Program-made: the position numbers and the translations under genes
Shown: piece after piece, positions 2,561 through 16,187 of the stretch
Position numbering within the stretch: position 1 is the stretch's first letter
Layout of the letters: every line of letters begins with the position of its first letter
From: Candidatus Methanomethylophilaceae archaeon
Lineage (GTDB): Archaea; Thermoplasmatota; Thermoplasmata; Methanomassiliicoccales; Methanomethylophilaceae
Length of the DNA: 16,187 bases
Direction: 5' to 3'
Assembly (NCBI GenBank): GCA_034006405.1
Contig: JAVESW010000020.1
Coordinates: 1-16,187 of the forward strand
Notes under the pieces: model-generated
Told to the model about the DNA's origin: nothing
The model's database searches: none
The model's input: only the letters and a program-made list of their open reading frames with translations

Positions 2561-2570
2561 AAAAAAAAAA
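2561..2570 (-). terminator. T10 tract on the minus strand, about 28 nt downstream of the last minus-strand ORF of the cluster. Archaeal-type poly-T terminator.
   Basis: A10 on the plus strand at 2561-2570 is T10 on the minus strand. Archaeal transcription termination typically uses oligo-T tracts. Confidence 0.45.
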
Positions 2571-2597
2571 CACAAATAAGAGATAGAAGTAGAGAGA

Positions 2598-2834
2598 TCA
2601 ACGCTCCTCATCTAATTCATCTACTCTTACTCTATCAGAAAGGGAACAGCGGTTCATTACCGGATCCCAGATTTCACAGGCATCTTTAAAACAGATTCCA
2701 GGAACCTGATCTAATGTTGCACAGTAACCGAGAGTAAATGGACACAATTTATGATTATTATCGGCAAAGACCATACGATTTGAGATATGGTCATACAGTT
2801 GGAGTCTGCCGTGTTCATCAGTCCATTTACGCAT
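2598..2834 (-). CDS. Small Cys-rich hypothetical protein (78 aa, 5 Cys), last gene of the minus-strand operon
   Basis: Its ATG (reverse complement of 2832-2834) lies immediately after the TGA of the upstream SPFH gene (2838-2840), implying translational coupling. The poly-T terminator follows. No recognisable family; it could be spurious. Confidence 0.35.
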   Translation of the reverse strand: MRKWTDEHGRLQLYDHISNRMVFADNNHKLCPFTLGYCATLDQVPGICFKDACEIWDPVMNRCSLSDRVRVDELDEER

Positions 2835-2837
2835 ATT

Positions 2838-4469
2838 TCATTCCTGTTTCTTCCCGCAGCTTGGACAGAAAACATCTCCGTTTGGAACATTCGCTGAACA
2901 GTATTGACATTGTGTACTTCCTTCAGGAGCGACATTAACAACAACCGGCGCCCCCATGCCCCCTGTAACAACGGTTGCCCCGGGATTTTGAGCCGTAGAG
3001 CGGGCAGTCGCCGTATTCCCCATAGCATTCAGCGCAGAATTCATTACCTCCTTCATCTGCTCGGCATTCTCCTTATATTGACTCTGCATCATCATGTTGA
3101 ATGCCTGCTGATCCTTGATGCGCAATTCGTTCAATTGTTCAACTGATTCAAGTTTGGCACGAGTTGCTAATGCCTCGGCAGCTGCCTTCGGGTCTTTTGC
3201 ATTCATCGCAAGGATCTGTTCTGGCGTCAGGCTGTTTGCTCTCTTTGCAAGTTCAAGCTGAACGAGGGCGCCGACCTTCTGATCATCGACCAGAGAAATG
3301 AGCACTTCGATCGATGCCTCTGAGAGATTTGCGATCTTTTGTCTCTCATCCTCGCGTTTGATCGCCTTGTTTTGTCTTTTGAACTCCAGTAGCTGCTCGA
3401 TCTCCTTGCGGTCTTTTTCCAGTTCGTGATCATGTCTTGCAGAATCACGAGCAAGCTCATGACCTAAATTCGCATCAGCTCTCTGGTTCCCCAATTCCTG
3501 ATCAAGGGATTTTATGGTATGGTCCGCATTAATCTGACCAACGGCATCTTCCGTTCCTGCTTCACGCAGATAGGCTTTCTTTTCATACTCTGCTTTGGCT
3601 TTGCCCACTTCGATCTGCAAACTCTCGCGTGCTCCAAGAACCTCTTTCCAGGCTCCTTCATCAAAACCCACACAGTTCAGATGAGAAATCTCTATACCCC
3701 TGTTACCAAAGTTTGCATTCAGATTTTTCTTGAACTCATTACTCAATTCCTGACTGAGAACTGCATTTCCGTACAGTTCTTCGATATTATATTGGGATAT
3801 TTTATTCTGGGCAATATTTTTGAGTTCTGCATGAATGCAGTTCTCGATGTCCGCAAGACTAACGTGCTGTTCACGTTTCAGATAGTTTTCAAGAAAAGCG
3901 ATCGGATCTTTGATCTGTGCCGTCACTTTACCTGCAGCTCCAACGGATATTGCATTCTTTGAGCGTAACTCACCTTTTGGAATCATGAAGGTGAGAGGAA
4001 TCTCTCCGGCATCAACAAGAATAACCGTTGTTCGCTCATCAAGTCTCAACTGACCAATGGTATCAAAGATGTTTCCAAGATTGTATGCGCCTGCAGGAAG
4101 TGTTCCTTTGTAAATTCCTCCCTGAAGAAGAATGGCTTTTGTTCCCTGTTCTACAGTGAGTCGTTTTGCAAAGACACCTCGGAGATCCTGAATATCAAAT
4201 CTCTGCGCGAAGTCGCCCGGCATTCTCATCCACTGACGATTTTTGCCTAGTTCTTTGGAGGTGTCGGCAATTCGTGTTGTTTGCGGCGATTCCAAGAGCT
4301 TTGCACCGCATTTTCCACAAAATGCAGCTCCCTGATTTAGTTTTGCACCACATACAGGACAGGTGCCACTTTCCGTTCCTCCAAGTCTTTTACCGCACGC
4401 TCCGCAAAACTGACTTCCGGCGGGGTTTTCATGACCACAGGAACAGGTAATTTTTTTATTAAACAGCAT
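2838..4469 (-). CDS. SPFH/Band-7 (stomatin/flotillin-like; Band_7_1 / YdjI-like) protein with N-terminal tandem zinc ribbons and a C-terminal zinc ribbon
   Basis: 543 aa. The N-terminus has three CxxC...CxxC pairs (CSCGHENPAGSQFCGACG, CPVCGAKLNQGAAFCGKCG). The C-terminus has CQYCSANVPNGDVFCPSCG. The central region follows the SPFH pattern (TTVILVDAGEIPLTFMIPKGELRSKNAISVGAAGKVTAQIKDPIAFLENY ... NFGNRGIEISHLNCVGFD), followed by a long E/A/K-rich, flotillin-like coiled coil. Start is ATG at 4467-4469. Confidence 0.6.
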   Translation of the reverse strand: MLFNKKITCSCGHENPAGSQFCGACGKRLGGTESGTCPVCGAKLNQGAAFCGKCGAKLLESPQTTRIADTSKELGKNRQWMRMPGDFAQRFDIQDLRGVFAKRLTVEQGTKAILLQGGIYKGTLPAGAYNLGNIFDTIGQLRLDERTTVILVDAGEIPLTFMIPKGELRSKNAISVGAAGKVTAQIKDPIAFLENYLKREQHVSLADIENCIHAELKNIAQNKISQYNIEELYGNAVLSQELSNEFKKNLNANFGNRGIEISHLNCVGFDEGAWKEVLGARESLQIEVGKAKAEYEKKAYLREAGTEDAVGQINADHTIKSLDQELGNQRADANLGHELARDSARHDHELEKDRKEIEQLLEFKRQNKAIKREDERQKIANLSEASIEVLISLVDDQKVGALVQLELAKRANSLTPEQILAMNAKDPKAAAEALATRAKLESVEQLNELRIKDQQAFNMMMQSQYKENAEQMKEVMNSALNAMGNTATARSTAQNPGATVVTGGMGAPVVVNVAPEGSTQCQYCSANVPNGDVFCPSCGKKQE

Positions 4470-4514
4470 TATAACTCCAATTCAATAAGTAATCTGTTAT
4501 TAGCTCCAGGACAC

Positions 4515-5078
4515 TTAAATTCTAGGCTCCAGAATGAGATTTTCCACCTCAATCTTTGCAGAAGCAATACTTTCATCATCTACCCTTAGTGCTTTCATAA
4601 GACCCAGAATTTTATCATATTCATCAGATGATCCATTATTTGTTGTGGCAAGGATTTCAGTGATCCGCTTTTTTTCGGTTTCTGCCTGAACCTCCGTATT
4701 CTCACGCTCTTTCAACAGCTGATCTACATCGATCTTACTGAATATGTTGTGTTTTTGATGTGCCTGGTCTTTCTTTTCCTCTTTTATCCGTAGAAGATTT
4801 GCGACTGCCATCTGTTTGTTTTCGGTTGCGAGGATCTGCTGGAGGAGTTCATTTTTTATGAGCATTTGATTCGTTACTTGCCGGGCTGCAAACTGAGTTT
4901 CGATTTCTGATGCAGCATTTTTTCCTGCATAGAGATTTGCTTCAATTTTTTCGTCAGCTTCTTTCATTTGTTTCATAAGAGTGGAATATTGGTATTCCAG
5001 CTCAGCGGCCGTTATGCGCAGATCACCAGAGGAGATCTTGTCAAGGCCGTTTTTCCGTCCAAAGATCCCGCGGGCCAT
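4515..5078 (-). CDS. ESCRT-III/Snf7 (CdvB)- or PspA-like small coiled-coil protein, paralog 2
   Basis: 187 aa, starting MARGIFGRK (compare MxxFGK/MGIFSR N-termini of Snf7 and PspA). Predicted long helical hairpin, then an acidic C-terminus with an amphipathic helix (DEYDKILGLMKALRVDDESIASAKIEVENL) resembling a MIT-interacting motif. The ATG sits 2 nt after the stop of the upstream paralog, so the two are coupled. Assigned from architecture only. Confidence 0.45.
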   Translation of the reverse strand: MARGIFGRKNGLDKISSGDLRITAAELEYQYSTLMKQMKEADEKIEANLYAGKNAASEIETQFAARQVTNQMLIKNELLQQILATENKQMAVANLLRIKEEKKDQAHQKHNIFSKIDVDQLLKERENTEVQAETEKKRITEILATTNNGSSDEYDKILGLMKALRVDDESIASAKIEVENLILEPRI

Positions 5079-5080
5079 TT

Positions 5081-5698
5081 TTAGAACTCACTTTTTTCTA
5101 AGGATTTTTCGATGTCTTTCTCGATCGAGAGCATGCTTTCCGCTTCGGATACATTCATACTGCCTGCCTCAACACTGTTCCAGATATCAAACATCTGCCT
5201 TTCTCCTTCGTCAACATCAGAATCAGAAGCCGTGGTTTCGTCAAGTGCAACGATGTTGTTGAGATTTTCGAGAACTTTCTCAAAATTATTCCCGGACAGG
5301 TTGACTTTGATGAGGGACTCCTCGAAGCTCTTAGGAGAGAGACTCTGAATTGTTTTCCAGATCTGAGTGTTCTCCAGATCACGCTGATACGTTTTGAGGA
5401 TGAGGAGGTTGGACACAAACATGTACTGTTTGTGTAAGGTCAGGAAGTTCTTGATTTTGAGTTTTCCGCTCATATCAAGTTGTTTTAACTCCTGCGCGAT
5501 CATCTTTTTCTTGATCAGATCGGCTCCTATACCCTCATTAAAAAGGGATTTTTTCGCTTTTTCAATTGTCTCGATCTCTTTTCTGAGACGATTGATCCTG
5601 ATTTTGAGTCTGAGCTCTTCTTCCTGGAGTTCTGTGCTCGTGAATTTGTCGATCGCAGTATTTTTTTTGAACGGATTTTTCAGTTCCATTTTTGTCAC
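5081..5698 (-). CDS. ESCRT-III/Snf7 (CdvB)- or PspA-like small coiled-coil protein, paralog 1
   Basis: 205 aa. The ORF begins with GTG at 5698 and the first ATG is at 5689 (MELKNPFKK...). It has a basic N-terminal helix (ELRLKIRINRLRKEIETIEKAKK), a second long helix, and a strongly acidic C-terminus (DETTASDSDVDEGERQMFDIWNSVEAGSMNVSEAESMLSIEKDIEKSLEKSEF), typical of ESCRT-III autoinhibitory/MIM tails. A minus-strand TATA-like atttatatc (5722-5730) lies about 25-35 nt upstream. Confidence 0.45.
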   Translation of the reverse strand: MTKMELKNPFKKNTAIDKFTSTELQEEELRLKIRINRLRKEIETIEKAKKSLFNEGIGADLIKKKMIAQELKQLDMSGKLKIKNFLTLHKQYMFVSNLLILKTYQRDLENTQIWKTIQSLSPKSFEESLIKVNLSGNNFEKVLENLNNIVALDETTASDSDVDEGERQMFDIWNSVEAGSMNVSEAESMLSIEKDIEKSLEKSEF

Positions 5699-5828
5699 AA
5701 GGATTTCATTGGTTTTTCATCGATATAAATCTATTCTCCAAAACGGATTATAAATATAATAACCTTAAAATCGAATGTCCAATGTGGTGATAGAAATATA
5801 TAGTCATAAAACATATTCCTTATTTAAT
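5699..5828. promoter_or_regulatory. AT-rich divergent promoter region between the minus-strand ESCRT-III-like/SPFH operon and the plus-strand TPR/MIT-AAA/Sel1 operon
   Basis: TATA-like boxes on both strands (5722-5730 for the minus operon; ttataaatataat at 5748-5760 and gaaatatatag at 5794-5804 for the plus operon). Their spacing is consistent with leaderless or short-leader archaeal transcripts starting at 5689/5698 and at 5775 or 5829. Confidence 0.4.
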
Positions 5829-6344
5829 ATGGATTATCTGATTTTGGTAGATTATCAGTCCGATGCGGAGCGTAAACGGATAGATTACGCTATTGAACGC
5901 TGGAAGGATAAGGGGAAAATACATAAAACGAAAGGAACGGTGATCCATTATGCCGGAGATGATGTGGATGATTTTCTTGATGATCTTTATTCCCGTCTGA
6001 GTGTTGGAACCGGATCCGTTCATATTTTTGCAGGAGACATCTATTCTCCTGATATCAATGAGCAAACAACCCAGCTGAAATATACTACGACTATAGATTC
6101 AACTGCGGTTGAGAATTTCCTGAAATATCTCATGAATAAACTCGGGGCTTCGTTCGAAGGAACAAAACAGGGAATCAAATCATATACCGCATACACAAAG
6201 AAAGGACAGGCAGGGATCGATGTTACTTTAACGGCTGGAGATAAGACGGCTGTTTTAGTTGTTGTGCGGGGGTACGGGGACGTAGTTTCGTTTATTGCTG
6301 GGAGAATCGATAAGGAACTGAAGGTTTTCCTAGAGGTAGAGTGA
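5775..6344 (+). CDS. Hypothetical protein, first gene of the plus-strand operon
   Basis: 189-aa ORF. An alternative leaderless start at ATG 5829 (MDYLILVDYQSD...) is equally plausible. The stop (6342-6344) lies 3 nt before the next ATG (6348). No family recognised; the N-terminal YLILVDYQSDAERKRIDYAIERW has only a faint Cas2-like flavour. Confidence 0.55.
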   Translation: MSNVVIEIYSHKTYSLFNMDYLILVDYQSDAERKRIDYAIERWKDKGKIHKTKGTVIHYAGDDVDDFLDDLYSRLSVGTGSVHIFAGDIYSPDINEQTTQLKYTTTIDSTAVENFLKYLMNKLGASFEGTKQGIKSYTAYTKKGQAGIDVTLTAGDKTAVLVVVRGYGDVVSFIAGRIDKELKVFLEVE

Positions 6345-6347
6345 ACA

Positions 6348-7082
6348 ATGATAAAAACTGAACGCTATCAAATTTTGTACAATGAAGGCAGAATGAATTT
6401 GAACAGAGGAAGATACACGGATGCTCTCAAATCATTTGAAAATGCAAGACGCGAATTGGATAATTCATATGTATATTCCGGAATTGGGCGTGCATATTAT
6501 GGTCTTGGAAAATACAGCGATGCTCTGAAAAATTTTGAAATAGCATGCATGAGATACTCTGGAAATATTCAGGCAACTCACTGGATGGCAAAGACTCTCG
6601 GAAAAATGAAGCGCTATAACGAGGCTGAAACACTGTTTAATGTGGTGTTGAGAAGATTAGGGAACGGGCCTGTAAATTTCTATCAGGAAGTCTTTGCCGA
6701 CTATGAAGATATGAAAAATGAAAGAGCTGGAATCAAACCTAGGGATTCGTTTTCTCAACCTCTGATGTCATATTCTTTGAACAAAGATTCGTCTACAAAA
6801 ATAATTTTCAACGGTGATATTTCTGCCCCTGTAAATATTGGGGGAGTCCAGGCAACTGATAACGCAATACTGAATCGTCCGGTAATAATGAGAGAGCCCG
6901 GTACTGGCTGCAATGTCCCAATTGAACAAATCATCCAAAGATCCGAAGAGCGAAATACCGTGGATATAAAACCAACAGGTATCCTTTCACGTATTATTAA
7001 GAAAGAAACGTGTGCGAATTGTGGGGCACCGACTCAGGAAGATCAACACTATTGTAACAAGTGCGGGAGGAAACTCCAATGA
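6348..7082 (+). CDS. TPR-repeat protein with a conserved C-terminal linker motif (GGVQATDNAILNRPV) and a C-terminal zinc ribbon (CANCG...YCNKCG)
   Basis: 244 aa. The N-terminal ~120 aa hold three TPR-like units (YTDALKSFENA..., YSDALKNFEIA..., YNEAETLFNVV...). The C-terminal CxxC-x10-CxxC motif is at the end. Its TGA forms an ATGA overlap with the downstream AAA ATPase start. Confidence 0.75.
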   Translation: MIKTERYQILYNEGRMNLNRGRYTDALKSFENARRELDNSYVYSGIGRAYYGLGKYSDALKNFEIACMRYSGNIQATHWMAKTLGKMKRYNEAETLFNVVLRRLGNGPVNFYQEVFADYEDMKNERAGIKPRDSFSQPLMSYSLNKDSSTKIIFNGDISAPVNIGGVQATDNAILNRPVIMREPGTGCNVPIEQIIQRSEERNTVDIKPTGILSRIIKKETCANCGAPTQEDQHYCNKCGRKLQ

Positions 7083-8248
7083 AAATCGATCTCAGCGGAC
7101 CTCTATATGATGCCCTGAAAAAAGCCACCGCAGAGTATGCATCCCTGATTGAGAAAAATGACCTTCCCGGAGCCACAAAAAAAGCTGCTGAGATCGCGAG
7201 GTTCTATCATGAACTTGCAAACATGAATCCCGTGAACAAAAAAGAATATCTCGAGCGTGCAGCAAAATGGGAGAGAGTATCATCTGGAAAAATACGATCA
7301 AAACAAAAACCGTCCCAGTCACCTCATACTGAAACCGAGAAAGAAGAGGAAAATGAAATGAGCCAAAAAGCCTCCTCTCTTATCAAGACCTCCAATGTCA
7401 AATGGTCCGATATCGGCGGGCTTGATTCTGTAAAAAAACTGATGATGGAAACGGTGGTGATCGCAGGTCTCCAAAAACCCGAGTCCATCAAACCCTGGAA
7501 AGGCATTCTTCTCTTTGGACCTCCGGGGACCGGGAAAACCCTTCTTGCGGCTGCGGCGGCAGGAAGTCTGCATGCAACCTTCTATGATGTGAAATCGGAG
7601 AGTGTGCTCTCAAAATATTTCGGTGAATCTTCAAAACTGATTTCTGCGCTCTACAACTCGGCAAGAGATCACTCCCCCTCGATCGTTTTCATTGATGAGT
7701 TCGATGCTCTCAGTCAGTCCCGGGACGGGGAAACAAGCGAGGCGACGCGTAAAGTCCTCTCCAGCCTCCTTACAGAATTGGATGGGCTTTCCGACAAGAA
7801 AAGTGATCAGCTTCTCCTCACTCTTGCAGCGACAAATACCCCGTGGGATCTGGATACAGCAGTTTTATCCCGTTTTCCACGGCGGATCTATGTTCCTCTT
7901 CCGGATCAGAAAGCGTGTAAGGAGATCATAAAGATCCAGACAAAAGGCATGGACATCTCAGGAGTTTCTCTTGAGAGCATTTCCGAAAAGTGTGCGGAGA
8001 TGCTCTACTCAGGACGGGATATTTCCAACTTCTGTCAGCAGGCGATATGGACGATGATCCATAGAGTGAACCCAGATCTCTACAAAATGGCTGAATTATC
8101 ATTTGATGAACTGAAAATGCGGAATTTGCAGACGATCCCTCTTGCTGATGATGATTTTCGTGAAGCTTTTATGAAGATCCGCTCACCAATAACAAAAAAT
8201 AAGATTGAACAATACGAACAATGGAACGATGAGTGTGGTGAAGTGTAA
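7079..8248 (+). CDS. Vps4/CdvC-like meiotic-clade AAA+ ATPase with an N-terminal MIT domain
   Basis: The ORF track starts at GTG 7061, but ATG 7079 has a strong GGAGG at 7066-7070 and forms an ATGA overlap with the upstream stop. The N-terminal ~70 aa (LYDALKKATAEYASLIEKNDLPGATKKAAEIARFYHELANMNPVNKKEYLERAAKWERV) fit the three-helix MIT pattern of Vps4. The AAA core has Walker A GPPGTGKT and Walker B IVFIDEFDAL, and the Vps4/katanin-specific stretch LAATNTPWDLDTAVLSRFPRRIYVPLPD (compare Vps4 [28 protein letters not shown]). Confidence 0.85.
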   Translation: MKIDLSGPLYDALKKATAEYASLIEKNDLPGATKKAAEIARFYHELANMNPVNKKEYLERAAKWERVSSGKIRSKQKPSQSPHTETEKEEENEMSQKASSLIKTSNVKWSDIGGLDSVKKLMMETVVIAGLQKPESIKPWKGILLFGPPGTGKTLLAAAAAGSLHATFYDVKSESVLSKYFGESSKLISALYNSARDHSPSIVFIDEFDALSQSRDGETSEATRKVLSSLLTELDGLSDKKSDQLLLTLAATNTPWDLDTAVLSRFPRRIYVPLPDQKACKEIIKIQTKGMDISGVSLESISEKCAEMLYSGRDISNFCQQAIWTMIHRVNPDLYKMAELSFDELKMRNLQTIPLADDDFREAFMKIRSPITKNKIEQYEQWNDECGEV

Positions 8249-8250
8249 AG

Positions 8251-9864
8251 ATGGGATTTAGCTTTTTTAATAAGGAAAAACGAGCAGCGGAACAGTACAC
8301 GAAAGCAGCAGAACAGGGAGATGCACGTGCACAATTCAATCTTGGAGTGTGCTATGCCCTTGGGATGGGGGTGGAGAAAGACCAGAAAAAAGCGGTATAT
8401 TGGTACACGAAAGCAGCAGAACAGGGACATGCAGATGCACAAAATTATCTCGGGTTGTACTATGATTTTGAGGATGAGGAGAAGGATAGGGAGGAGAAAG
8501 AATGGGTTTCCAGTACAAGAGCAAGGGCAGAACAGGGAGATGCTGATACACAAAATCATCTCGGGATGTGCTATGACTTTGAGATGGGGGTGAAGAAAGA
8601 CCAAAAAAAAGCGGTATATTGGTACACAAAAGCAGCGGAGCAGGGAAATGCGTTTGCACAAAATTTTCTCGGTGAGCACTATAAGGGGGGTGTGGGAGTG
8701 GAAAAAGACCAGAAAAAAGCGGTATATTGGTACACAAAAGCAGCAGACCAGGGAGATGCACGTGCGGGATATGCACGTGCACAAGTCAATCTCGGGGTGT
8801 GCTATGAGAGGGGTGTGGGGGTGGAGAAAGACCCGAAAAAAGCGATATATTGGTACATGAAAGCAGCAGAACAGGGAGATGCTGATGCACAAGTCAATCT
8901 CGGGGTGTGCTATGAGAGGGGTGTGGGGGTGGAGAAAGACCCGAAAAAAGCGGTGGAGTGGTGGACAAAAGCAGCAGAACCACGCCCAACATTATCGAGA
9001 GATGTAGTAGACCCGGGAAATGAAGAGGCACAAACCAATCTCGGGTGGTGCTATGAAAATGGGGTGGGTGTAGAAAAAGACCAGAAAAAAGCGGTGTATT
9101 GGTACACAAAAGCAGCAGACGAGGGAGGTGAACGTGCAGGATATGCACGTGAGGGATATGCACGTGCACAAAATAATCTCGGGTTGTGCTATGAAAATGG
9201 GGTGGGGGTGGAGAAAGACCAGAAAAAAGCAGTATATTGGTACACGAAAGCAGCAGAGCAGGGAAATGCAATGGCACAAGATAATCTTGGGAGGTGCTAT
9301 GAGAGGGGTGTGGGGGTGGAGAAAGACCTGAAAAAAGTTGTATATTGGTACACAAAAGCAGCGGAGCAGGGACATGCTGATGCACAATTCAATCTCGGGT
9401 CGTGCTATGAGAATGGGGTGGGTGTGGAAAAAGATCTGAAAAAAGCGGTGATGTGGTTTACCAAAGCAGCGGAGCAGGGAAATGCACGTGCACAAACTAA
9501 TCTAGAGTTGTGTTATAAGAATGGGGTGGAAAAAGACCAGAAAAATGCGGGATATGGTTACACGAAAGAAGCAGAACAAGGAGATGCTGATGCACAAACC
9601 AATCTCGGGTTGTGCTATGAATTGGGGGAGGCGGTAGAAAAAGACCTGAAAAAAATTGTGTACAATGTAAACTATTTTTCGGCGGAAAAAATAATTCAAG
9701 GAAATATCGGTGTCTATGCAACAGATGATGCGATCGTCCATCGTCCGGTTGTGGGTGAGAAGGGATCAGATGATCCGAAAAATATCTTTTGCCCGTATTG
9801 CGGCAGACAACTTCCAGACGATGCAAGATTCTGCACTGGGTGCGGAAAACAAATTAGTGGATAA
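8251..9864 (+). CDS. Sel1-repeat (SLR) protein with about 13 tandem repeats, the conserved linker motif (GVYATDDAIVHRPV) and a C-terminal zinc ribbon (CPYCGRQLPDDARFCTGCG)
   Basis: 537 aa. The canonical Sel1 consensus recurs (AQxNLGxCYExGxGVEKDxKKAVYWYTKAAEQGxAxAQ). Its ATG is 3 nt after the AAA ATPase stop, so they are coupled. The many antisense ORFs over this region are artefacts of the DNA-level tandem repeat. Confidence 0.85.
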   Translation: MGFSFFNKEKRAAEQYTKAAEQGDARAQFNLGVCYALGMGVEKDQKKAVYWYTKAAEQGHADAQNYLGLYYDFEDEEKDREEKEWVSSTRARAEQGDADTQNHLGMCYDFEMGVKKDQKKAVYWYTKAAEQGNAFAQNFLGEHYKGGVGVEKDQKKAVYWYTKAADQGDARAGYARAQVNLGVCYERGVGVEKDPKKAIYWYMKAAEQGDADAQVNLGVCYERGVGVEKDPKKAVEWWTKAAEPRPTLSRDVVDPGNEEAQTNLGWCYENGVGVEKDQKKAVYWYTKAADEGGERAGYAREGYARAQNNLGLCYENGVGVEKDQKKAVYWYTKAAEQGNAMAQDNLGRCYERGVGVEKDLKKVVYWYTKAAEQGHADAQFNLGSCYENGVGVEKDLKKAVMWFTKAAEQGNARAQTNLELCYKNGVEKDQKNAGYGYTKEAEQGDADAQTNLGLCYELGEAVEKDLKKIVYNVNYFSAEKIIQGNIGVYATDDAIVHRPVVGEKGSDDPKNIFCPYCGRQLPDDARFCTGCGKQISG

Positions 9865-10474
9865 TTATTCCATCTTTATCCCGTCATGTTTTTGCCTGCT
9901 CTCCTCGCGGCGTGTCTTTCTTACAATGACTGGGTTCAGCATACACAAACGCTGCATCCTGGAGCAAAGCGAGCGAAACGAAGCGGAAAGCAAGGCTTTG
10001 CCTTGCGCACTGCCTTGTTCAATTTTGAGACCTTTCAGGTCAAGCTGCCTCTGAAATTCCTGCCAAACCAATTTGTCAACGCCTGATTCGGACATGCGTT
10101 CCCGAAATAACCAGATCGTTGAATTGTCAGGTATTTTGTCAGGACACACAAGAGGCCGCAAGCTAGAACTTGCTCACCGTTTCGGGCTAATGCCCTCACT
10201 TACAATGCCAAAAGGAGAGACGATCATAGATTTCACGTTCAACGGCGAGATCAGACAGATTATACCAGACTACCAGAAGCTGAATCTTGAACATGAGTAT
10301 TACATCGACATTGGGATGACCGCCTTTGTCGGATTTGTTCGAATACATGGATTCAAGAAGAGGGCGAAACACATCCCAATCAAGAGTTTTACCAACGTCG
10401 GAGAGACGGTCGCCAAGTTTTTCATAACGCTCGTGATATGCCTGGTTGAGACCAAAACTGCTGAAAGTCCCCAT
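9865..10474 (-). pseudogene. Remnant of an IS5-family (DDE) transposase gene: N-terminal portion only, split across two frames
   Basis: 10196..10474 (-) encodes the InsH-like N-terminal domain (LDWDVFRPLLESMYSNKSDKGGHPNVDVILMFKIQLLVVWYNLSDLAVEREIYDRLSF). 9865..10161 (-) continues in another frame with the IS5 signature PDNSTIWLFRERMSESGVDKLVWQEFQRQLDLKGLKIEQG. Similarity is then lost where the GC-rich hairpin repeat (9990-10006) sits. The catalytic DDE region is absent. Confidence 0.6.
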
Positions 10475-10517
10475 ACATAAGAGCCAACGTACGGAGAGAA
10501 AGTACTTTCTGTCAGAA

Positions 10518-10524
10518 AAAAAGG
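10518..10524 (-). terminator. T7 tract on the minus strand, about 40 nt downstream of the TIR-protein gene stop
   Basis: A7 on the plus strand at 10518-10524. Archaeal oligo-T terminator. Confidence 0.35.
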
Positions 10525-10560
10525 TTGTTAGAAATTCTCTTATTTGTTTCTTTGATGATA

Positions 10561-12897
10561 TTATTTAAATGGATTGTATGTCAGCGATATTAACCAACTG
10601 AGAGGCATACTAAGTATGAATCCACATATTGGTCCTCCAATCCATACACTTACTACTTGAATCCAGCCAGGAATATTCCATCCATCACCCTGTGTACCCA
10701 TAACAATTGCAAACACAATAAACATAACTACCACCATGCCAATAACTGTAACCCCAATATCAGACGCTTGTTGATGATCTCGGCTCATGGAAATGTACTC
10801 ACCACGCTTCTTATGCATGTATGACAGAGTATCTTTTGCATCTTTGTATTTTGAATACTCTTTTAATGATGATACGGCTTTATTATAATTATTGGTAAAA
10901 GCATTCTTTGCATAATTATAATTATCCTGATTATCCTTTATAAAGGAGTTCTGAATTAACAAATTTAAATAATCATCAAATTCAGAACGTATTGAGACAC
11001 ATACATGTTTACATTGTTCTTTACGTATTGGTTCTAAACATTGCTGAGCTAACTCACTTGAGTCCCTGTAACCATCCAGTGAAATAAATAGTGTTTGAGC
11101 ACGTGAATAATCACCAGATTCCATCGCTCTCTTTGCATCTATATAAATCCTCTCAGTATCCAGAGCGAGACATTTATTCGCCAGTTCAGACGAATCCTTA
11201 TAATTCCCTAAGGAGAGGGATTCATTCCGAGCACGGATATAGTCACCACCATTCATTAAAGCAATTGTATCTTTGTATTTTTTTTCAGTCTCCAACTCGA
11301 TACATTTTTTCACCAACTCTGCTGAGTCCTTGTACTCTTTTAACGATAAAAATACTTCACGGGCACTAAGATAAACCCCCATATTCATCATATTGATTGC
11401 ATCCGTATATTTCTTATCAATATCCAGTGCCGTACATTTCTTTGCCAGTTCAACTGAATCTTTATAACCCTTTAATGATTCAAAAATACCACGAGCAGTT
11501 ATATAATAGCCACCGTTCATAGTATTTTTTGCATCTATATAAATCCTCTCAGTATCCAGAGCGAGACATTTATTCGCCAGTTCAGACGAATCCCTATGGT
11601 CTTTGATTTTAAGGAATTTCTCCCTCGCCTCCATAAATTTATTGGAATTCAGGATTTCCTTTGCTTCAGCATACCAGACATCATGATTCTGATAGAGATA
11701 CTGTTCAAGAGTCTGTTTATACTCTGCATCAGCAAAACGAATGGCTTTCTTAAATAGGTCTTCATCCCGCAAATATATTTTAAGTTTTGTTAATTCATCT
11801 GGCGTGCGGACATTTTTTTGAACCATCAGTTTTCCTATGTAGGCTTGTGAGTATTCGGGATCGAAATCCAATGCTCGCTCAAGTAATTCATCTGCCCTGC
11901 TGATTTCTCTTTCCTCTAAGAAAAGGAAAGCACGTTTTACTAAGGGTGCTGCATTACTATCTGATTTTGAAGATGCAGATGCAGCAGATGTTTGTTCTGT
12001 TCCAACCAGTTTTTTCAGATTTCTGGTTAAATCAGGCATAAACGCAATATTAGACATATCCAACGCTTGAAGATGTGAGAACTCATCCGGCAAATCATAT
12101 GCATCCATATCCCTGAAACAAGGAATAAGAGTTTTTTTCTGACTCTTATCTATTTTCATCATGTGCAAATAACGTGACCACTCATTTTTAACCCAGATGG
12201 CATTGAAATATTCCTGCCTCGTTCCAAGAACAAGCATCACTTTTGCAGAAGATAAAGCTGCATAAATATATGGTTCATATTCTACACCAAGCTTGTCTTC
12301 AAGTGTGATAGCAGCATAGAACGTTTTCAAACCAGAATTAGTCAGTTCATGATAAATTTCATTGGCAATTACGCTGTCACGTGTTTTCTGACCATTTTCA
12401 TCTTTTTCCTTGTAACAGATAAAAACATCAAATGGCTTCTCAGATTTAACAATATCTAGAATCTTTCGTTGGAGATCATTGATTTCTTTTGCCTGAATCT
12501 CATAAACCAACTTGGCAGTTGAATCTGCATTCTGAAGTGTAGCAATGTAGTCTGAGTCAGTTAAAATAGATTCGAGTTGTGTTCTATGACATGTTGGGTG
12601 TCTGTTTCCAGTTTGAGTATCCTCAACATATTCTACACCATACTTACATAGAACAATCCCCCAATGTGCCTCTGCTTGAGTGTTATCAATGTCTAAAATT
12701 TTTTCATAAGCATCAACTGCTTTATCAAATTCACATTTTATGCGTAGATTATTTGCACGGTTGAAAAGATTGATGACAATATCATCACCACTTGTTGAAA
12801 GGGTCTGTTCCGTACCGCAATTATCACAAATGATAACTGAAACACCATTTGGAACATCCAAATTGCCACCACACATTTTACATTTGAATTGTGTCAT
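10561..12897 (-). CDS. Multidomain protein: N-terminal zinc ribbon, TPR-like helix pair, TIR domain, at least five tandem 44-aa repeats, and two C-terminal transmembrane helices
   Basis: 778 aa. Zinc ribbon: CKMCGGNLDVPNGVSVIICDNCG. TIR signature: FDVFICYKEKDENGQKTRDSVIANEIYHELTNSGLKTFYAAITLEDKLGVEYEPYIYAALSSAKVMLVLGTRQEYFNAIWVKNEWSRY. The 44-aa repeat recurs as YKDSxELAxKCxxLDxEKxYxDAxxxMNxGxYxxARxxFxSLxx. C-terminal hydrophobic stretches are VTVIGMVVVMFIVFAIVMG and IQVVSVWIGGPICGFILSMPLSWLISL. The region is AT-rich compared with upstream genes. Confidence 0.8.
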   Translation of the reverse strand: MTQFKCKMCGGNLDVPNGVSVIICDNCGTEQTLSTSGDDIVINLFNRANNLRIKCEFDKAVDAYEKILDIDNTQAEAHWGIVLCKYGVEYVEDTQTGNRHPTCHRTQLESILTDSDYIATLQNADSTAKLVYEIQAKEINDLQRKILDIVKSEKPFDVFICYKEKDENGQKTRDSVIANEIYHELTNSGLKTFYAAITLEDKLGVEYEPYIYAALSSAKVMLVLGTRQEYFNAIWVKNEWSRYLHMMKIDKSQKKTLIPCFRDMDAYDLPDEFSHLQALDMSNIAFMPDLTRNLKKLVGTEQTSAASASSKSDSNAAPLVKRAFLFLEEREISRADELLERALDFDPEYSQAYIGKLMVQKNVRTPDELTKLKIYLRDEDLFKKAIRFADAEYKQTLEQYLYQNHDVWYAEAKEILNSNKFMEAREKFLKIKDHRDSSELANKCLALDTERIYIDAKNTMNGGYYITARGIFESLKGYKDSVELAKKCTALDIDKKYTDAINMMNMGVYLSAREVFLSLKEYKDSAELVKKCIELETEKKYKDTIALMNGGDYIRARNESLSLGNYKDSSELANKCLALDTERIYIDAKRAMESGDYSRAQTLFISLDGYRDSSELAQQCLEPIRKEQCKHVCVSIRSEFDDYLNLLIQNSFIKDNQDNYNYAKNAFTNNYNKAVSSLKEYSKYKDAKDTLSYMHKKRGEYISMSRDHQQASDIGVTVIGMVVVMFIVFAIVMGTQGDGWNIPGWIQVVSVWIGGPICGFILSMPLSWLISLTYNPFK

Positions 12898-12964
12898 AGT
12901 TTATCATCATATATCTATATTATATCTCAAGGTTATTTTATATTTATTATCAGAATGATTATTA

Positions 12965-13008
12965 TAGAGTCTGTCCAATCGTAATGTGAATCTGTTGGAC
13001 AGACTCTA
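12965..13008. promoter_or_regulatory. Perfect 14-bp inverted repeat (tagagtctgtccaa-N16-ttggacagactcta) in the AT-rich divergent intergenic region between the TIR-protein gene and the Sel1 paralog. Candidate operator.
   Basis: Seen directly at 12965-12978 and 12995-13008. Both flanking genes are transcribed away from it, so it is not a terminator. It is surrounded by TATA-like AT-rich sequence. Confidence 0.35.
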
Positions 13009-13090
13009 CTAAATTATATAAAACACATCAGATATTTAATATGAATAATATACATAATAACTAATATTGATATTATAAGAGGTTATTAAA

Positions 13091-14062
13091 ATGTATCCGA
13101 GTGATTCAACCACAAACTTATCTGACAAATTTAATAATGAGAATAAACATGATGAATTGGAAAAGCAATTAGCATTATATTCCTGTTATTTGGATGGCTC
13201 ATGCGGATTTGAAAAAAATCCTGAAAAAGGACTATCATTAATTATTAAAATTGCAGAACAAGATAATGTAAATGCCCAGATTCTGTTAGCTGCCCTATAT
13301 TATGCAGGTGAGAAAGTTAGATTGAATCCAGAAGCTGCTTTCTATTGGTACTCTAAAGCAGCAGAACAAGACAATACAACTGCACAGTATAAATTAGGCT
13401 ATTTTTATAAAAATGGAATTGGTGTTGATAAAAATCTTCAAATATCAAAATATTGGTATACTAAAGCAGCAAAGAAAGGACATACAGTATCACAAAAAGA
13501 ACTTGGTGATATTTACAAAAAAAGTAATAATGTAGAAGATTTAATATCAGCTATTTATTGGTATACTAAAGCAGCAGAACTTGGAAATATAGATGCTCAA
13601 AATTCATTAGGAATTTGTTATGCTAATGGAACCGGTGTTGAAGAAGATGCTGAAAAAGCAGTATCTCTATTTACAAAAGCGGCCAAAAAAGGAAATGCTG
13701 ATGCACAGTATAATTTAGGAATATGTTATTTCAATGGATTCGGTGTTGATAAAAATAAAATAAGAGTTAAAGAATGGATTGAAAAATCAATAGAACAAAA
13801 CTACGAGCCTGCACTTAATTTTGCTGAAAATCATCCAGAACTTAATTTCAAAAATACACAAAGCATAGTCTCTAATATTTACAATGTAACTGGAGATTAT
13901 ATTCAGGATAACCATGGTGTTATTGCAAAAGATGATGCCATAGTATATCGTACAAATCTAAATAATGAACAAGCTACCACCCCATCTTTTTGTTCTCAAT
14001 GCGGATGTCCGGCAATAACAGGTGACATATTCTGCAGAAAGTGTGGTGGAAAATTACAATGA
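13091..14062 (+). CDS. Sel1-repeat protein paralog with the conserved linker motif (GVIAKDDAIVYRT) and a C-terminal zinc ribbon (CSQCGCPAITGDIFCRKCG)
   Basis: 323 aa. Sel1 consensus units (AQYKLGYFYKNGIGVDKNLQISKYWYTKAAKKGH..., AQNSLGICYANGTGVEEDAEKAVSLFTKAAKKGNADAQYNLGICYFNGFGVDKN). Same domain order as 8251..9864, but with a strongly AT-biased codon choice. Confidence 0.85.
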   Translation: MYPSDSTTNLSDKFNNENKHDELEKQLALYSCYLDGSCGFEKNPEKGLSLIIKIAEQDNVNAQILLAALYYAGEKVRLNPEAAFYWYSKAAEQDNTTAQYKLGYFYKNGIGVDKNLQISKYWYTKAAKKGHTVSQKELGDIYKKSNNVEDLISAIYWYTKAAELGNIDAQNSLGICYANGTGVEEDAEKAVSLFTKAAKKGNADAQYNLGICYFNGFGVDKNKIRVKEWIEKSIEQNYEPALNFAENHPELNFKNTQSIVSNIYNVTGDYIQDNHGVIAKDDAIVYRTNLNNEQATTPSFCSQCGCPAITGDIFCRKCGGKLQ

Positions 14063-14172
14063 ATGTATTCTATTATAATATAGATTGCAATAGAATACAT
14101 ATGATGATATTGTAAGGATTTTGATAGAAGTAAATGCAATTCTGAATAAAAACGAATGATACACATTCCAAG

Positions 14173-14382
14173 TTAGATAATGAGTAATAAATATAGTCTT
14201 TCATACAAAATAGGATTTATGAATACGCCTACGACGATTGCAATGAGGCCGAAGATCGCAATAAGGTCCCCATAGCCGATACGCAGAGCGATACGATATG
14301 CACCCCGCCCAACTGATTCTTTTCTTTTTCGTGTTTTCGTGGATTTTTTTGTGAATTTCGTGTGATGATTTATACCATCCAA
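14173..14382 (-). CDS. Possible small membrane protein (69 aa; basic N-terminus plus one TM helix)
   Basis: ORF only. The K/R-rich N-terminus is followed by LIAIFGLIAIVVGVFINPIL. No clear promoter or RBS. It lies convergent to the Sel1 paralog and could be spurious. Confidence 0.2.
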   Translation of the reverse strand: MDGINHHTKFTKKSTKTRKRKESVGRGAYRIALRIGYGDLIAIFGLIAIVVGVFINPILYERLYLLLII

Positions 14383-14454
14383 AGAATCCCGCTTGAAATG
14401 CGTAGATATGACACAGAAAAGCCGCTGATATTTATCTCAAATATACGATATCTC

Positions 14455-14585
14455 GACTGCGGGCCGACTCGCAAGGCAAAGCCTTGCTCGGCTGAGGCCA
14501 TCCCTTGGGGGCAGCCCGCCTCAGCTAAGATCGCCGGTTATGCCGTCGATCCGCCTCCGCGCCGGATCACAAACACTTCCCGCAC
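14455..14585. repeat. GC-rich structured repeat block in AT-rich surroundings, related to the nested segment at 2091-2170
   Basis: It shares gcaaggcaaagccttgctcggctgagg with 2106-2132 (gcaaggcaaatccttgctccgctaagg). It also contains an internal hairpin: gctgaggc, a loop, then gcctcagc. ORF 14362..14592 across it is low-complexity. Confidence 0.5.
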
Positions 14586-14872
14586 CCCATAATCAAGGAT
14601 TTGCAGCACTAAAAATACAATTTAATTGGTATTATTAGTGCAATCCATTGAATTTTTGTGCAAGATGAATATTTTTAGTGCCAACAGATTTTTAACAAGC
14701 AAATATTTATGATAGTGGAAATGAAAGTATCAACTATAGTTGAATTTAGTAACTTTGTTCAACTTGTCACAAAGAAATTCTTGTATTTGTTTCTAAATAT
14801 CCTAAGAGGGGATATACAGAACATAAAATACATTATAAATCATCTGTAAAATTTAAATTATGGAGATAAAAA

Positions 14873-15016
14873 ATGAAAGACGGTAAAGGTGCAATTAAAG
14901 ACAGAGATCAAGTTTACAATTCAAAAACAGGTCGATGGGTTAAAAGAGATGAAAATGGAAAATTTATGAGTGTAAAATTTGATGATAAACCATACAAGAG
15001 TGTGAGAAAGAAATAA
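14873..15016 (+). CDS. Small basic hypothetical protein (47 aa: MKDGKGAIKDRDQVYNSKTGRWVKRDENGKFMSVKFDDKPYKSVRKK)
   Basis: ATG at 14873 is preceded by GGAG at 14862-14865 with a 7-nt spacing. The frame is clean and ends at TAA 15014-15016. It is not in the ORF track because of its size. It sits alone in a ~2-kb AT-rich gene-poor tract. Confidence 0.4.
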   Translation: MKDGKGAIKDRDQVYNSKTGRWVKRDENGKFMSVKFDDKPYKSVRKK

Positions 15017-15289
15017 TTCTTATCAAATTATCAATAACTGATAAAATCGAATTGTACGAGTTGTTTTTAATATCATAAGATAAACTTGTTTTTAAATACA
15101 AATATATATGGTGCTTATTGGGGTATCCTAATTATAGATTACAGCACACGATGATGAAATATCTCTCACCTAAATTAGGATGATTGTGAGAGAGAGATAA
15201 TATAATAAAAATAATCCGTGATGATACATCTTGCGTCCATTTTTTCATATATCCAATGCACAAAGAAACCACACACCCCGAAATCAGAA

Positions 15290-15490
15290 AATGAATAATA
15301 AACAAAAAGAAAAACCCGCACGCGGGTTTGTCCCCAGCATTTTTCCAGACGGCGTGCGATTCCTGCGTAGGCGATCAGCCGGAGCAGAGCACGACGGCGC
15401 AAGGAAAATGCGATTCGCGTTAATTCGCGGAGATTCGCGGTTCTTTTATTTTTGAGCCACACCTAACATTACATGAAATCGAAGTACACT
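15290..15490 (-). repeat. Diverged single-arm copy (minus orientation) of the terminal part of the 1976-2504 inverted-repeat element
   Basis: The reverse complement of 15469-15487 (gtgtacttcgatttcatg) matches the element terminus gtacttcgatttcgtg (1976-1991). The reverse complement of about 15420-15450 (aaagaaccgcgaatctccgcgaatt...) matches aaaaccaaccgcgaatcggcgcgaat (about 2025-2052). The block is GC-rich in AT-rich context and ends with the hairpin cccgcacgcggg plus a T-run on the minus strand (15303-15330). ORFs 15175..15462 (-) and 15231..15455 (+) over it are likely spurious. Confidence 0.5.
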
Positions 15491-16056
15491 TCATAAAACA
15501 ATAACTCCAAAATTCATCCAAAAATATCATCTTGAATCTTCTTATAGCACCCCTCTAAAAACTGCCCGATATAATTTTTATGCGCGGTTAATTTTCTCAC
15601 TCTTATCTGCGAAATCCAAAATAATCGATCATAATTATTCAGAACCTGCCGTTTCGTAATGAATTTCTATCTATATATTAATGCCTCATCTCACCAAACA
15701 CTATTCTAAAATTCCTATCGTACAAAAAATATGCATATATTTATACGTATCGAATTGAATTTTATATATGTAATGTTAAATTATAACTCAATTTATGAAT
15801 TATCAAAAAACAGCGTCTTAAATGATCAAATACTAAACGTAAATCTTGAAGGTATTGGATTGATATTTCCAGATGTAAGTCCCGAACCAATCATCAAAAT
15901 TCTCATTCCCATATTCATAGGGATAATTGGCATACTGCTTCTACAGTTCCCCAGAACAAACTAGGATCAGGGTCGCACTGAATCTTAGTTATAATCTGGT
16001 TCCCCATTTTGAATATACTACTTTATCCCCCTTCACCCCAAATAGTACCCACACCA

Positions 16057-16187
16057 ATGAAAGGCGGAGAAGAAGAATTCAAATATAAACAGTGCCTCAT
16101 CCTCAGAAGCGACCTAAAACTCAGCTGCGGAAAAATGTGTGCCCAGGCAGCCCATGCCTCCATCGGCGCCTACGAAAAAGCCTCCCT
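16057..16187 (+). CDS. pth2: Peptidyl-tRNA hydrolase, archaeal/eukaryotic Pth2 type (5' part; continues past the window end)
   Basis: Translation [43 protein letters not shown] matches the conserved Pth2 N-terminus (compare the Pth2 pattern ...VIRxDLxMGKGKxAAQxxHAxxxAY...). TATA-like aatatact lies about 40 nt upstream. Confidence 0.7.

Follow-up and report, generated by a model that had tools for sequence, protein, structure and literature searches.

TIR enzymes are central to bacterial, plant, and animal immunity, and the known prokaryotic TIR systems are cytoplasmic and triggered from within. ThsB has ThsA as its partner, and SpbK senses prophage as a soluble protein. So far, TIR effectors fused to C-lectin sensors that are targeted by diversity-generating retroelements (DGRs) have been known solely from multicellular bacteria, within STAND or ternary systems (PMC10907252). 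Here, we analyzed a 16,187-nucleotide stretch of DNA (the window; positions 1 to 16,187 of contig JAVESW010000020.1) that encodes a 778-residue TIR protein on its reverse strand. By its colinear head, stalk, and transmembrane (TM) segments, this protein is a member of a very large, uncharacterized family of zinc ribbon (ZnR)–TPR–TIR membrane proteins. Both its structure and its family membership are well supported.

Domain anatomy and family of the window protein

The gene and the parts of its product are as follows.

10561 to 12897, reverse strand: complete open reading frame (ORF) of the TIR gene, 778 amino acids (aa), ATG start at 12897
12793 to 12897, reverse strand: C4 zinc ribbon, aa 1 to 35 (C6, C9, C24, C27), from a weak Pfam zinc-ribbon match at aa 3 to 34, Cys conservation, and two β-hairpins in the AlphaFold2 (AF2) model
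12442 to 12783, reverse strand: TPR-like three-helix unit (aa 39 to 85), β-hairpin (aa 88 to 103), and two helices (aa 115 to 152), from Pfam, AF2, and conservation
12004 to 12441, reverse strand: TIR domain, aa 153 to 298, from the Pfam match at aa 158 to 283 (12049 to 12426) and AF2/Foldseek
12181 to 12183, reverse strand: GAG codon of E239, the catalytic-type Glu in WVKNEW (aa 235 to 240; W235 at 12193 to 12195)
11956 to 12003, reverse strand: Ser/Ala-rich disordered linker, aa 299 to 314, with an AF2 predicted local distance difference test (pLDDT) score <50
11674 to 11955, reverse strand: second TPR-like helical segment, aa 315 to 408, from weak TPR_14/TPR_19 matches (aa 319 to 355), the family consensus, and AF2
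11014 to 11673, reverse strand: five 44-aa repeats, aa 409 to 628, a predicted TPR-like solenoid stalk
10759 to 11013, reverse strand: post-repeat helical region, aa 629 to 713, with a possible degenerate sixth repeat at ∼aa 657 to 700 and a K/R-rich stretch before the first hydrophobic segment
10582 to 10758, reverse strand: two hydrophobic segments, aa 714 to 734 and ∼745 to 772, with a short uncharged loop between them

The order of parts is thus ZnR–TPR–TIR–TPR–five 44-aa repeats–two hydrophobic segments. The zinc ribbon, the TIR domain, the repeat array (five copies with an exact 44-aa period), and the double C-terminal membrane anchor, all named in an original prediction made from the DNA, were each recovered in our analyses. 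That prediction had overlooked the TPR-like helices that flank the TIR domain on both sides (aa 39 to 85 and 315 to 408). The JGI gene call, 771 aa long, starts at M8 and thereby loses the zinc ligand C6; because homologs conserve K5-C6-K7, the ATG at 12897 is the true start. Among 79 homologs, three of the four zinc-ribbon cysteines are invariant and the fourth is nearly so.

An AF2 model of the whole protein, run with a 79-sequence alignment, has a mean pLDDT of 87 and shows the zinc ribbon, the three-helix TPR unit, the β-hairpin, two helices, the TIR domain, the disordered linker, and a long all-helical region. In Foldseek searches with this full-length model, TPR solenoids dominated and the TIR domain was uninformative; hence, residues 1 to 300 were modeled separately. 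This second model has a pLDDT of 89 and a predicted TM-score (pTM) of 0.80, and for that reason we treat the ∼300-residue head as one compact unit, with the TPR-like unit, hairpin, two helices, and TIR domain predicted to form a single module. Within the head, Pfam TPR_2 matched aa 44 to 72 near threshold (26.7 bits), and the β-hairpin is conserved, with the motif CKYG.EYVED...PTCHRT.

The TIR assignment itself is secure. Pfam TIR_2 (PF13676) matched aa 158 to 283 with 44.5 bits, against a gathering cut-off of 28 bits, and Foldseek aligned the model of aa 1 to 300 with the TIR structures of flax L6, SARM1, MyD88, Hydra TRR-2, and the SPARTA TIR-APAZ protein, all with a probability of 1.0 and target TM-scores of ∼0.6 to 0.7. 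A phmmer search of the PDB with the whole protein returned designed TPRs and a weak Toll-like receptor (TLR) TIR match only. The catalytic-type glutamate is in place: of the 79 homologs, 78 keep E239 of the WVKNEW motif and all keep W235. In a profile alignment of the TIR region, E239 aligns with the Glu of the TLR motif WCQYEL and with that of WPAREL in Brucella BtpA, a position that we take to be the catalytic one in TIR NADases.

C-terminal to the head, the second TPR-like segment (aa 315 to 408) is conserved across the family and leads into the repeat array. The five repeats share 34 to 59% pairwise protein identity, and each unit is modeled by AF2 as a ∼25-aa helix, a ∼10-aa helix, and a loop with G-Y-K-D-S. 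The array is visible in the protein only, as Tandem Repeats Finder (TRF) detected no tandem repeat in the TIR gene at the DNA level. The units have 43 to 67% DNA identity overall, but units 1 and 4 share a 70-nucleotide (nt) stretch (11528 to 11597 and 11132 to 11201) with a much higher identity of 98.6%, which suggests recent intragenic conversion or duplication. With a period of 44 aa, the array differs from TPR units of 34 aa, and none of the Pfam TPR models matched aa 409 to 628 at E ≤ 0.01, the only NCBIfam match being a subthreshold BamD-like one. Compared with the PDB, the full AF2 model is closest to TPR solenoids (Ctr9, Ski3, P58IPK, and designed CTPRs), with E ∼1e-4 and low TM-scores. 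The repeats, whose class the original prediction had left to structure prediction, are therefore TPR-like in their modeled fold, yet they go unrecognized by the Pfam TPR models. Of the two hydrophobic segments that follow, the first is strong (hydropathy 3.0) and the second moderate (1.8). Together they are predicted to form a membrane hairpin that leaves both protein ends in the cytoplasm and no ectodomain.

The family is very large. Our whole-protein search saturated with at least 7,998 relatives scored, and a phmmer search of 1.84 billion cluster representatives with aa 1 to 300 found at least 3,929 clusters (50% identity) at E ≤ 1e-30, the match always being N-terminal. The architecture, which the original prediction did not recognize from described TIR systems, is indeed undescribed in the literature searched, but these numbers show that it is not rare. 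In species-representative genomes (one per species) there are at least 600 such stretches; among the matches listed nearly all are from Clostridia, chiefly Acutalibacteraceae, Oscillospiraceae, Lachnospiraceae, and Ruminococcus, with identities to the query of ≤56%. Relatives occur on 2 of 2.9 million viral contigs. The head is the most constant part: the window protein is 78% identical to the relative P0002 over aa 1 to 299, and the TIR region is 65 to 83% identical among proteins that are 40 to 55% identical overall.

Membrane attachment is equally general, with one or more TM segments predicted after the head in 119 of the 120 best homologs. The layout is either a C-terminal pair, as in the window protein, or a single TM segment and a long tail. 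In 77 single-TM members, whose tails have a median length of 328 aa, K+R falls from 6.7 before the TM segment to 1.4 behind it; this charge bias places the TIR domain in the cytoplasm and the tail outside the cell. The tails carry DUF6273 (C-lectin-like), RCC1, Glug, or FtsK-gamma domains by Pfam. Repeats of the GYKDS type lie on both sides of the membrane in relatives. A search with the repeat region alone, which gave at least four proteins, further uncovered them in proteins that lack a TIR domain but share the zinc ribbon, stalk, and TM segments.

Partner genes and variable outer domains of relatives

To see what accompanies the TIR gene, ORFs were clustered from 81 family loci. Two partners emerged, one with a median length of 426 aa (60 of 81 loci) and one of ∼233 aa (57 of 81). 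All the genes share one strand, where partner 1 comes first, partner 2 second, and the TIR paralogs, one to five in number, last. The first partner is a Band_7_1 (PF13421, YdjI-type) SPFH protein with zinc ribbons, for which PADLOC has no matching model. Partner 2 has four TM helices (4-TM) and a cytosolic helical tail bearing an RYSDP motif with an invariant SDP; it matched nothing in Pfam, NCBIfam, or PADLOC. NCBIfam likewise holds no family model for the TIR protein or for the SPFH partner. The nearest relatives of the window protein (P0002 and P0004) and the archaeal loci L082 to L085 carry the SPFH/4-TM operon, and their partners form a clade distinct from that of the Lachnospiraceae locus L013.

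A reciprocal test in metagenomes was seeded on the SPFH partner, the 4-TM partner having no conserved stretch usable as a seed. Among the 65 SPFH-seeded loci, all contained the 4-TM gene and 52 the TIR gene. In most of the 13 TIR-less loci, partner 2 is followed by a gene whose product begins with the same kind of zinc ribbon and TPR and continues with a non-TIR body, which points to a core platform with ZnR/TPR-led clients, of which the TIR protein is the main one. Examples of such ZnR/TPR-led proteins are encoded at L141:8861-10753, L152:8860-10770, and L168:5998-7986; among these and others like them, several have a Ribosomal_L12-C-like domain at their end.

The window departs from this arrangement. 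Searched in all frames, it contains no homolog of the Band_7_1 SPFH protein or of the 4-TM partner. Its own SPFH protein was considered as the canonical partner and rejected: it belongs to the Band_7 PF01145 subfamily, and the likeness is through zinc ribbons only. Around one quarter of family loci are, like the window copy, without adjacent partners, and in L092 a two-TM member is the sole TIR gene of a complete operon.

Two relatives (L017 and L021) have a TIR–TM–DUF6273 gene followed by bAvd and reverse-transcriptase (RT) genes. Each has a variable repeat (VR) at the 3′ end of the TIR gene and a template repeat (TR) between the bAvd and RT genes, both 127 nt long.

L017: VR 10421 to 10547, TR 11114 to 11240
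L021: VR 6520 to 6646, TR 7213 to 7339

Mismatches between VR and TR fall at TR adenines in 16 of 17 and 24 of 26 cases. This is the signature of a DGR, and the DUF6273 end is thus hypermutated in these two loci. DUF6273 has been described as a C-lectin-like DGR target (PMC10743442). The wider surroundings of the operons suggest a mobile or defense-rich setting. Phage integrase (five), resolvase (four), and bAvd (three) were the most frequent Pfam matches in the 149 genes lying no more than two positions away from the operons, and strong single PADLOC matches nearby were Hhe, PD-T4-6, PDC-S37, PDC-S01, MkoA, pAgo, and SIR2.

The low-GC island and its archaeal host

The window gene lies on an island of low GC between a conserved host module and a gene for Pth2.

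10500 to 16187: low-GC island (0.29 to 0.39) with the TIR gene, the Sel1-ZnR gene (13091 to 14062, forward strand), and ∼2 kb of low-coding DNA

The same locus is present on several metagenome contigs, and the TIR gene is identical on at least three independent ones. The Pth2 flank falls into a 90%-identity cluster with Pth2 of Methanocorpusculum parvum, M. labreanum, and M. bavaricum, and the SPFH/zinc-ribbon protein at 2838 to 4469 into a 90% cluster with proteins of Methanocorpusculum isolates; the host is thus a Methanocorpusculum archaeon. Identical locus proteins have been deposited under metagenome-assembled genomes (MAGs) of Methanomethylophilaceae, Bacilli, Methanosarcinaceae, and Cloacimonadota. 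The contig labels (Methanomethylophilaceae, Bacilli, and others) are binning errors, and the low-GC Methanocorpusculum region looks to be systematically misbinned.

The AT-rich island of the original prediction is borne out by the GC contents of the TIR gene (0.36), the Sel1-ZnR gene (0.32), and the 2-kb tail (0.36), all of them below those of the host SPFH gene (0.46) and of Pth2 (0.555). DNA identity to isolate GPch4 is 88.5% over 2565 to 6333 and 74% over 6813 to 9654, with no match from ∼9700 onward. By these comparisons, the island is accessory and strain-specific, and it was probably acquired horizontally. None of the findings that would have overturned the original prediction applies: the TIR profile match and the glutamate are present, and the gene is accessory, as the module of GPch4 is without it. 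The Sel1-ZnR gene at 13091 to 14062, which had been described as a paralogous neighbor, is present, but it is a paralog of the gene at 8251 to 9864 and not of the TIR gene. Its conservation beside the TIR gene, which the original prediction had put up for checking, did not hold, as it is absent from all other loci compared, and we rejected it as a conserved partner. Between it and Pth2, 14063 to 16187 (∼2.1 kb, 36% GC) has no ORF >95 aa, no tRNA, and no Rfam match; Rfam and tRNA scans of the whole window also returned nothing.

The host module (2598 to 9864) comprises eight genes in two divergent arms, is conserved in Methanocorpusculum, and is TIR-free in GPch4 (74 to 88% DNA identity). One arm encodes a 187- to 189-aa protein, a TPR-ZnR protein (6348 to 7082), a Vps4/CdvC-like AAA protein (7061 to 8248), and a Sel1x9-ZnR protein (8251 to 9864). 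The other encodes coiled-coil proteins of ∼190 to 200 aa (5081 to 5698 and 4515 to 5078), a DZR-SPFH-ZnR protein (2838 to 4469), and a 78-aa Cys-rich protein (2598 to 2834). The module may be related to archaeal Vps4/ESCRT-like systems with SPFH proteins (PMC10936438); its coiled-coil proteins matched no Snf7 or PspA profile. A tail of the form G(V/I)xAxDDAIVxR, followed by a linker and a CxxC...CxxC zinc ribbon, is shared by the proteins at 6348 to 7082, 8251 to 9864, 13091 to 14062, and L003:2691-3707, which otherwise differ (one TPR, two Sel1, and one Band_7_1 SPFH). The DDAIVxR tail with its zinc ribbon could be a shared docking module.

Locus L003 (JAQVBA010000085.1), labeled as an Acholeplasmataceae MAG, has flanks that match the window proteins at 2838 to 4469 and 2598 to 2834 with identities of 96.7% and 83%, which indicate that it is really Methanocorpusculum. 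Inserted between those two host genes are a different TIR gene (47% identical) and a Band_7_1 gene, at 35% GC. Members of the family have therefore arrived next to this one host SPFH/AAA module on two or more occasions, which could reflect a functional link or a mere insertion hotspot.

At the far side of the host module lies an AbiEii (215 to 1183)/AbiEi-DUF6088 (1190 to 1843) pair of the toxin–antitoxin or abortive-infection type, followed on sister contigs by a transposase or a 2,101-aa ORF. Between AbiEi and the 78-aa gene, 1973 to 2507 holds repeated segments of ∼60 to 120 nt with ∼89% identity (1973 to 2090 versus 2389 to 2507, and others), which are present in GPch4 and L003 too.

Possible functions and comparison with known systems

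From the conservation of its active-site motif, we infer that the window protein may cleave NAD+ via E239. One relative has been assayed: in E. coli lysates, two constructs of the isolated TIR domain from E. eligens EUBELI_RS07950 (C4Z355) yielded no NADase product (Weagley et al. 2022, PMC9092222, Table S2). Colinear with the window protein and 37% identical to it over 393 aa, this relative shares the WVKNEW motif. In that lysate screen, 28 of 152 domains were active, and its authors allow for false negatives; the table also contains family members from child gut metagenomes, unnamed and labeled "Inactive" (PMC9092222). The NADase activity put forward in the original prediction is putative.

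The reading that we prefer, to which we give about even chances, is that of a membrane-bound TIR effector or sensor that depends on a trigger and has a role in conflict or defense. Under this model, the SPFH/4-TM pair would provide a membrane platform on which ZnR/TPR-led proteins dock as clients. In the window protein, the TPR-like stalk, including the five 44-aa repeats, joins the conserved ∼300-aa head to the predicted C-terminal membrane hairpin. The TIR head would be silent alone, and a membrane or surface event that clusters it would switch it on; the activated head would then cleave NAD+ via E239, causing NAD+ depletion or producing an ADP-ribose (ADPR)-type signal. The likeliest purpose of such cleavage would be a conflict or defense response. 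The window copy is a solo paralog that lacks an ectodomain and sits on a low-GC island gained by horizontal transfer, and, speculatively, it may use the adjacent host SPFH-ZnR/Vps4-like AAA/TPR-ZnR/Sel1 module or partner genes elsewhere in the genome.

The evidence for a defense role, which the original prediction had also proposed, is indirect and comes from the context of the operon and the window: the AbiE pair in the window, and the integrases, resolvases, Hhe, PD-T4-6, MkoA, and pAgo/SIR2 near relatives' operons. Several observations weigh on the other side. The defense-island counts around the operon come without a control set, and PADLOC matches none of the TIR, SPFH, and 4-TM proteins. 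The isolated TIR domain of the E. eligens family member was inactive as an NADase (PMC9092222), and the conservation of the head would fit a housekeeping or signaling enzyme as well as an immune effector. The window copy is without both canonical partners and without an ectodomain, and its second hydrophobic segment (∼aa 745 to 772) is only moderate in hydrophobicity.

A bolder form of the defense reading, which we hold as a tentative and rather doubtful extension, is that SPFH/4-TM/ZnR-TIR operons are a new, widespread class of transmembrane innate-immune receptors of gut Clostridia and methanogens. An SPFH platform would hold arrays of TIR "receptors" with variable, sometimes DGR-hypermutated outer domains, and the sensing of phage or cells would lead to NAD+ signaling or cell death. 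If true, this would be a prokaryotic functional analog of Toll-like receptors with built-in diversification, and in the window gene we would see a member that has no ectodomain and moved into an archaeon.

Among the alternatives, the one that survives best, although we consider it unlikely, is that the protein is a component of envelope or membrane homeostasis rather than of immunity, in which the TIR head, the YdjI-type SPFH protein, and the 4-TM protein serve membrane-stress signaling or microdomain organization. The head could be a regulated NAD-linked signaling enzyme or a purely oligomerizing scaffold. YdjI-type SPFH proteins do act in the PspA membrane-stress pathway (PMC11237479, PMC10936438), and the window copy adjoins an SPFH/Vps4-like AAA module. 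A typical arms-race effector would not show the very strong conservation seen in the head and in the SPFH protein, viral contigs almost never carry the family (2 loci in 2.9 million), and the only relative assayed (E. eligens) was NADase-inactive. However, the near-invariant catalytic Glu and Trp argue for enzyme activity, while the tandem paralogs and hypervariable outer domains, some of them DGR-diversified, point to a changing target. The gene is moreover accessory, on a low-GC island in Methanocorpusculum, and integrases and defense genes flank the operon.

It is less probable still that the window gene is a functionally orphaned passenger of horizontal transfer, a solo copy that does little or nothing without its SPFH and 4-TM partners. 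Such a fate would suit the lack of a homolog of either partner in the window, the position on a low-GC island followed by ∼2 kb of low-coding DNA, and the absence of the TIR gene at the same locus in isolate GPch4. Yet the 778-codon ORF is intact and keeps all conserved head residues, and the gene is identical on at least three independent contigs. About a quarter of family loci also have no adjacent partners, which may lie elsewhere, and ectodomain-less two-TM members can be the sole TIR gene in complete operons. A secreted or host-directed Tcp-type factor that disturbs animal TLR signaling, like TcpC, BtpA, or TirS, would fit a gut- or digester-associated organism and a TIR fold resembling those of MyD88 and TLRs, but it is extremely improbable given a methanogen host, no signal peptide or secretion-system context, and a cytoplasmic zinc ribbon and positive-inside pattern that put the TIR domain inside the cell.

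The interest of an effector or sensor at the membrane lies mainly at the level of the family, the window gene being a solo member without partners. The family is abundant in gut and rumen Clostridia and sets a conserved catalytic-type TIR head at the membrane. If active, it would show how prokaryotes link surface or membrane events to NAD+-based signaling, would explain a large block of gut-microbiome "TIR domain-containing proteins" now scored inactive, and would document the transfer of such a system into methanogenic archaea.

The TIR-based systems to which the protein belongs are themselves known; the membrane/SPFH family looks new, and a full-text literature search found no description of this TIR/SPFH/4-TM architecture or operon. 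Nor did any PADLOC model match the TIR protein when the known-system check suggested by the original prediction was run. The window TIR protein belongs to none of the systems Thoeris, CBASS, Pycsar, and SPARTA. For Thoeris, there is no ThsA/ThsB PADLOC match and no SIR2 or SLOG gene among the window proteins; for CBASS and Pycsar, Pfam and PADLOC gave no CD-NTase, pyrimidine cyclase, SAVED, STING, or cyclic nucleotide monophosphate (cNMP)-binding match in the protein or its neighbors; and for SPARTA, no pAgo or APAZ is found in the window, the resemblance being in the TIR fold only.

The TIR NADases AbTir, BtpA, TcpO, ThsB, and SpbK, with SARM1 and plant TIRs as structural relatives, have in common with the window protein a TIR_2 match, a flavodoxin-like fold, and WxxxE. 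None of these five has the ZnR-TPR head, the 44-aa stalk, the membrane anchor, or the SPFH/4-TM partners. AbTir and TcpO are soluble proteins of a coiled-coil and a TIR domain (aa 204 to 341 in TcpO; PMC10022894). The archaeal TIR NADase TcpO was rejected as a family member, since its architecture differs, and BcTir/Tpr was rejected as a separate two-gene system.

For the partners, the closest parallel is in PspA/SPFH operons of the B. subtilis ydjFGHI type, which combine a Band_7_1 SPFH protein with zinc ribbons and small membrane proteins, as in relatives' operons (PMC11237479, PMC10936438). In relatives, however, the client is a TIR protein, and no PspA, YdjG, or YdjH homologs were detected; the window SPFH protein is of a different subfamily (Band_7 PF01145) and a host-module gene. 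With the DGR C-lectin "antigen sensor" systems (PMC10907252, PMC7159879), some relatives share a conserved effector end (TIR) and a DGR-hypermutated C-lectin sensor (DUF6273). Those systems have STAND NTPase or MoxR-vWA ternary cores, whereas the present family, from Clostridia and methanogens, consists of type-II membrane proteins with SPFH/4-TM partners and no NTPase, and the window protein has no C-lectin domain. Set against animal Toll-like receptors, by analogy only, the family has a reversed topology with an N-terminal TIR domain, keeps the catalytic Glu, and has no homology outside TIR, and the window protein is without an ectodomain; what the single-TM relatives do share with these receptors is a variable repeat or lectin ectodomain, one TM segment, and a cytoplasmic TIR domain.

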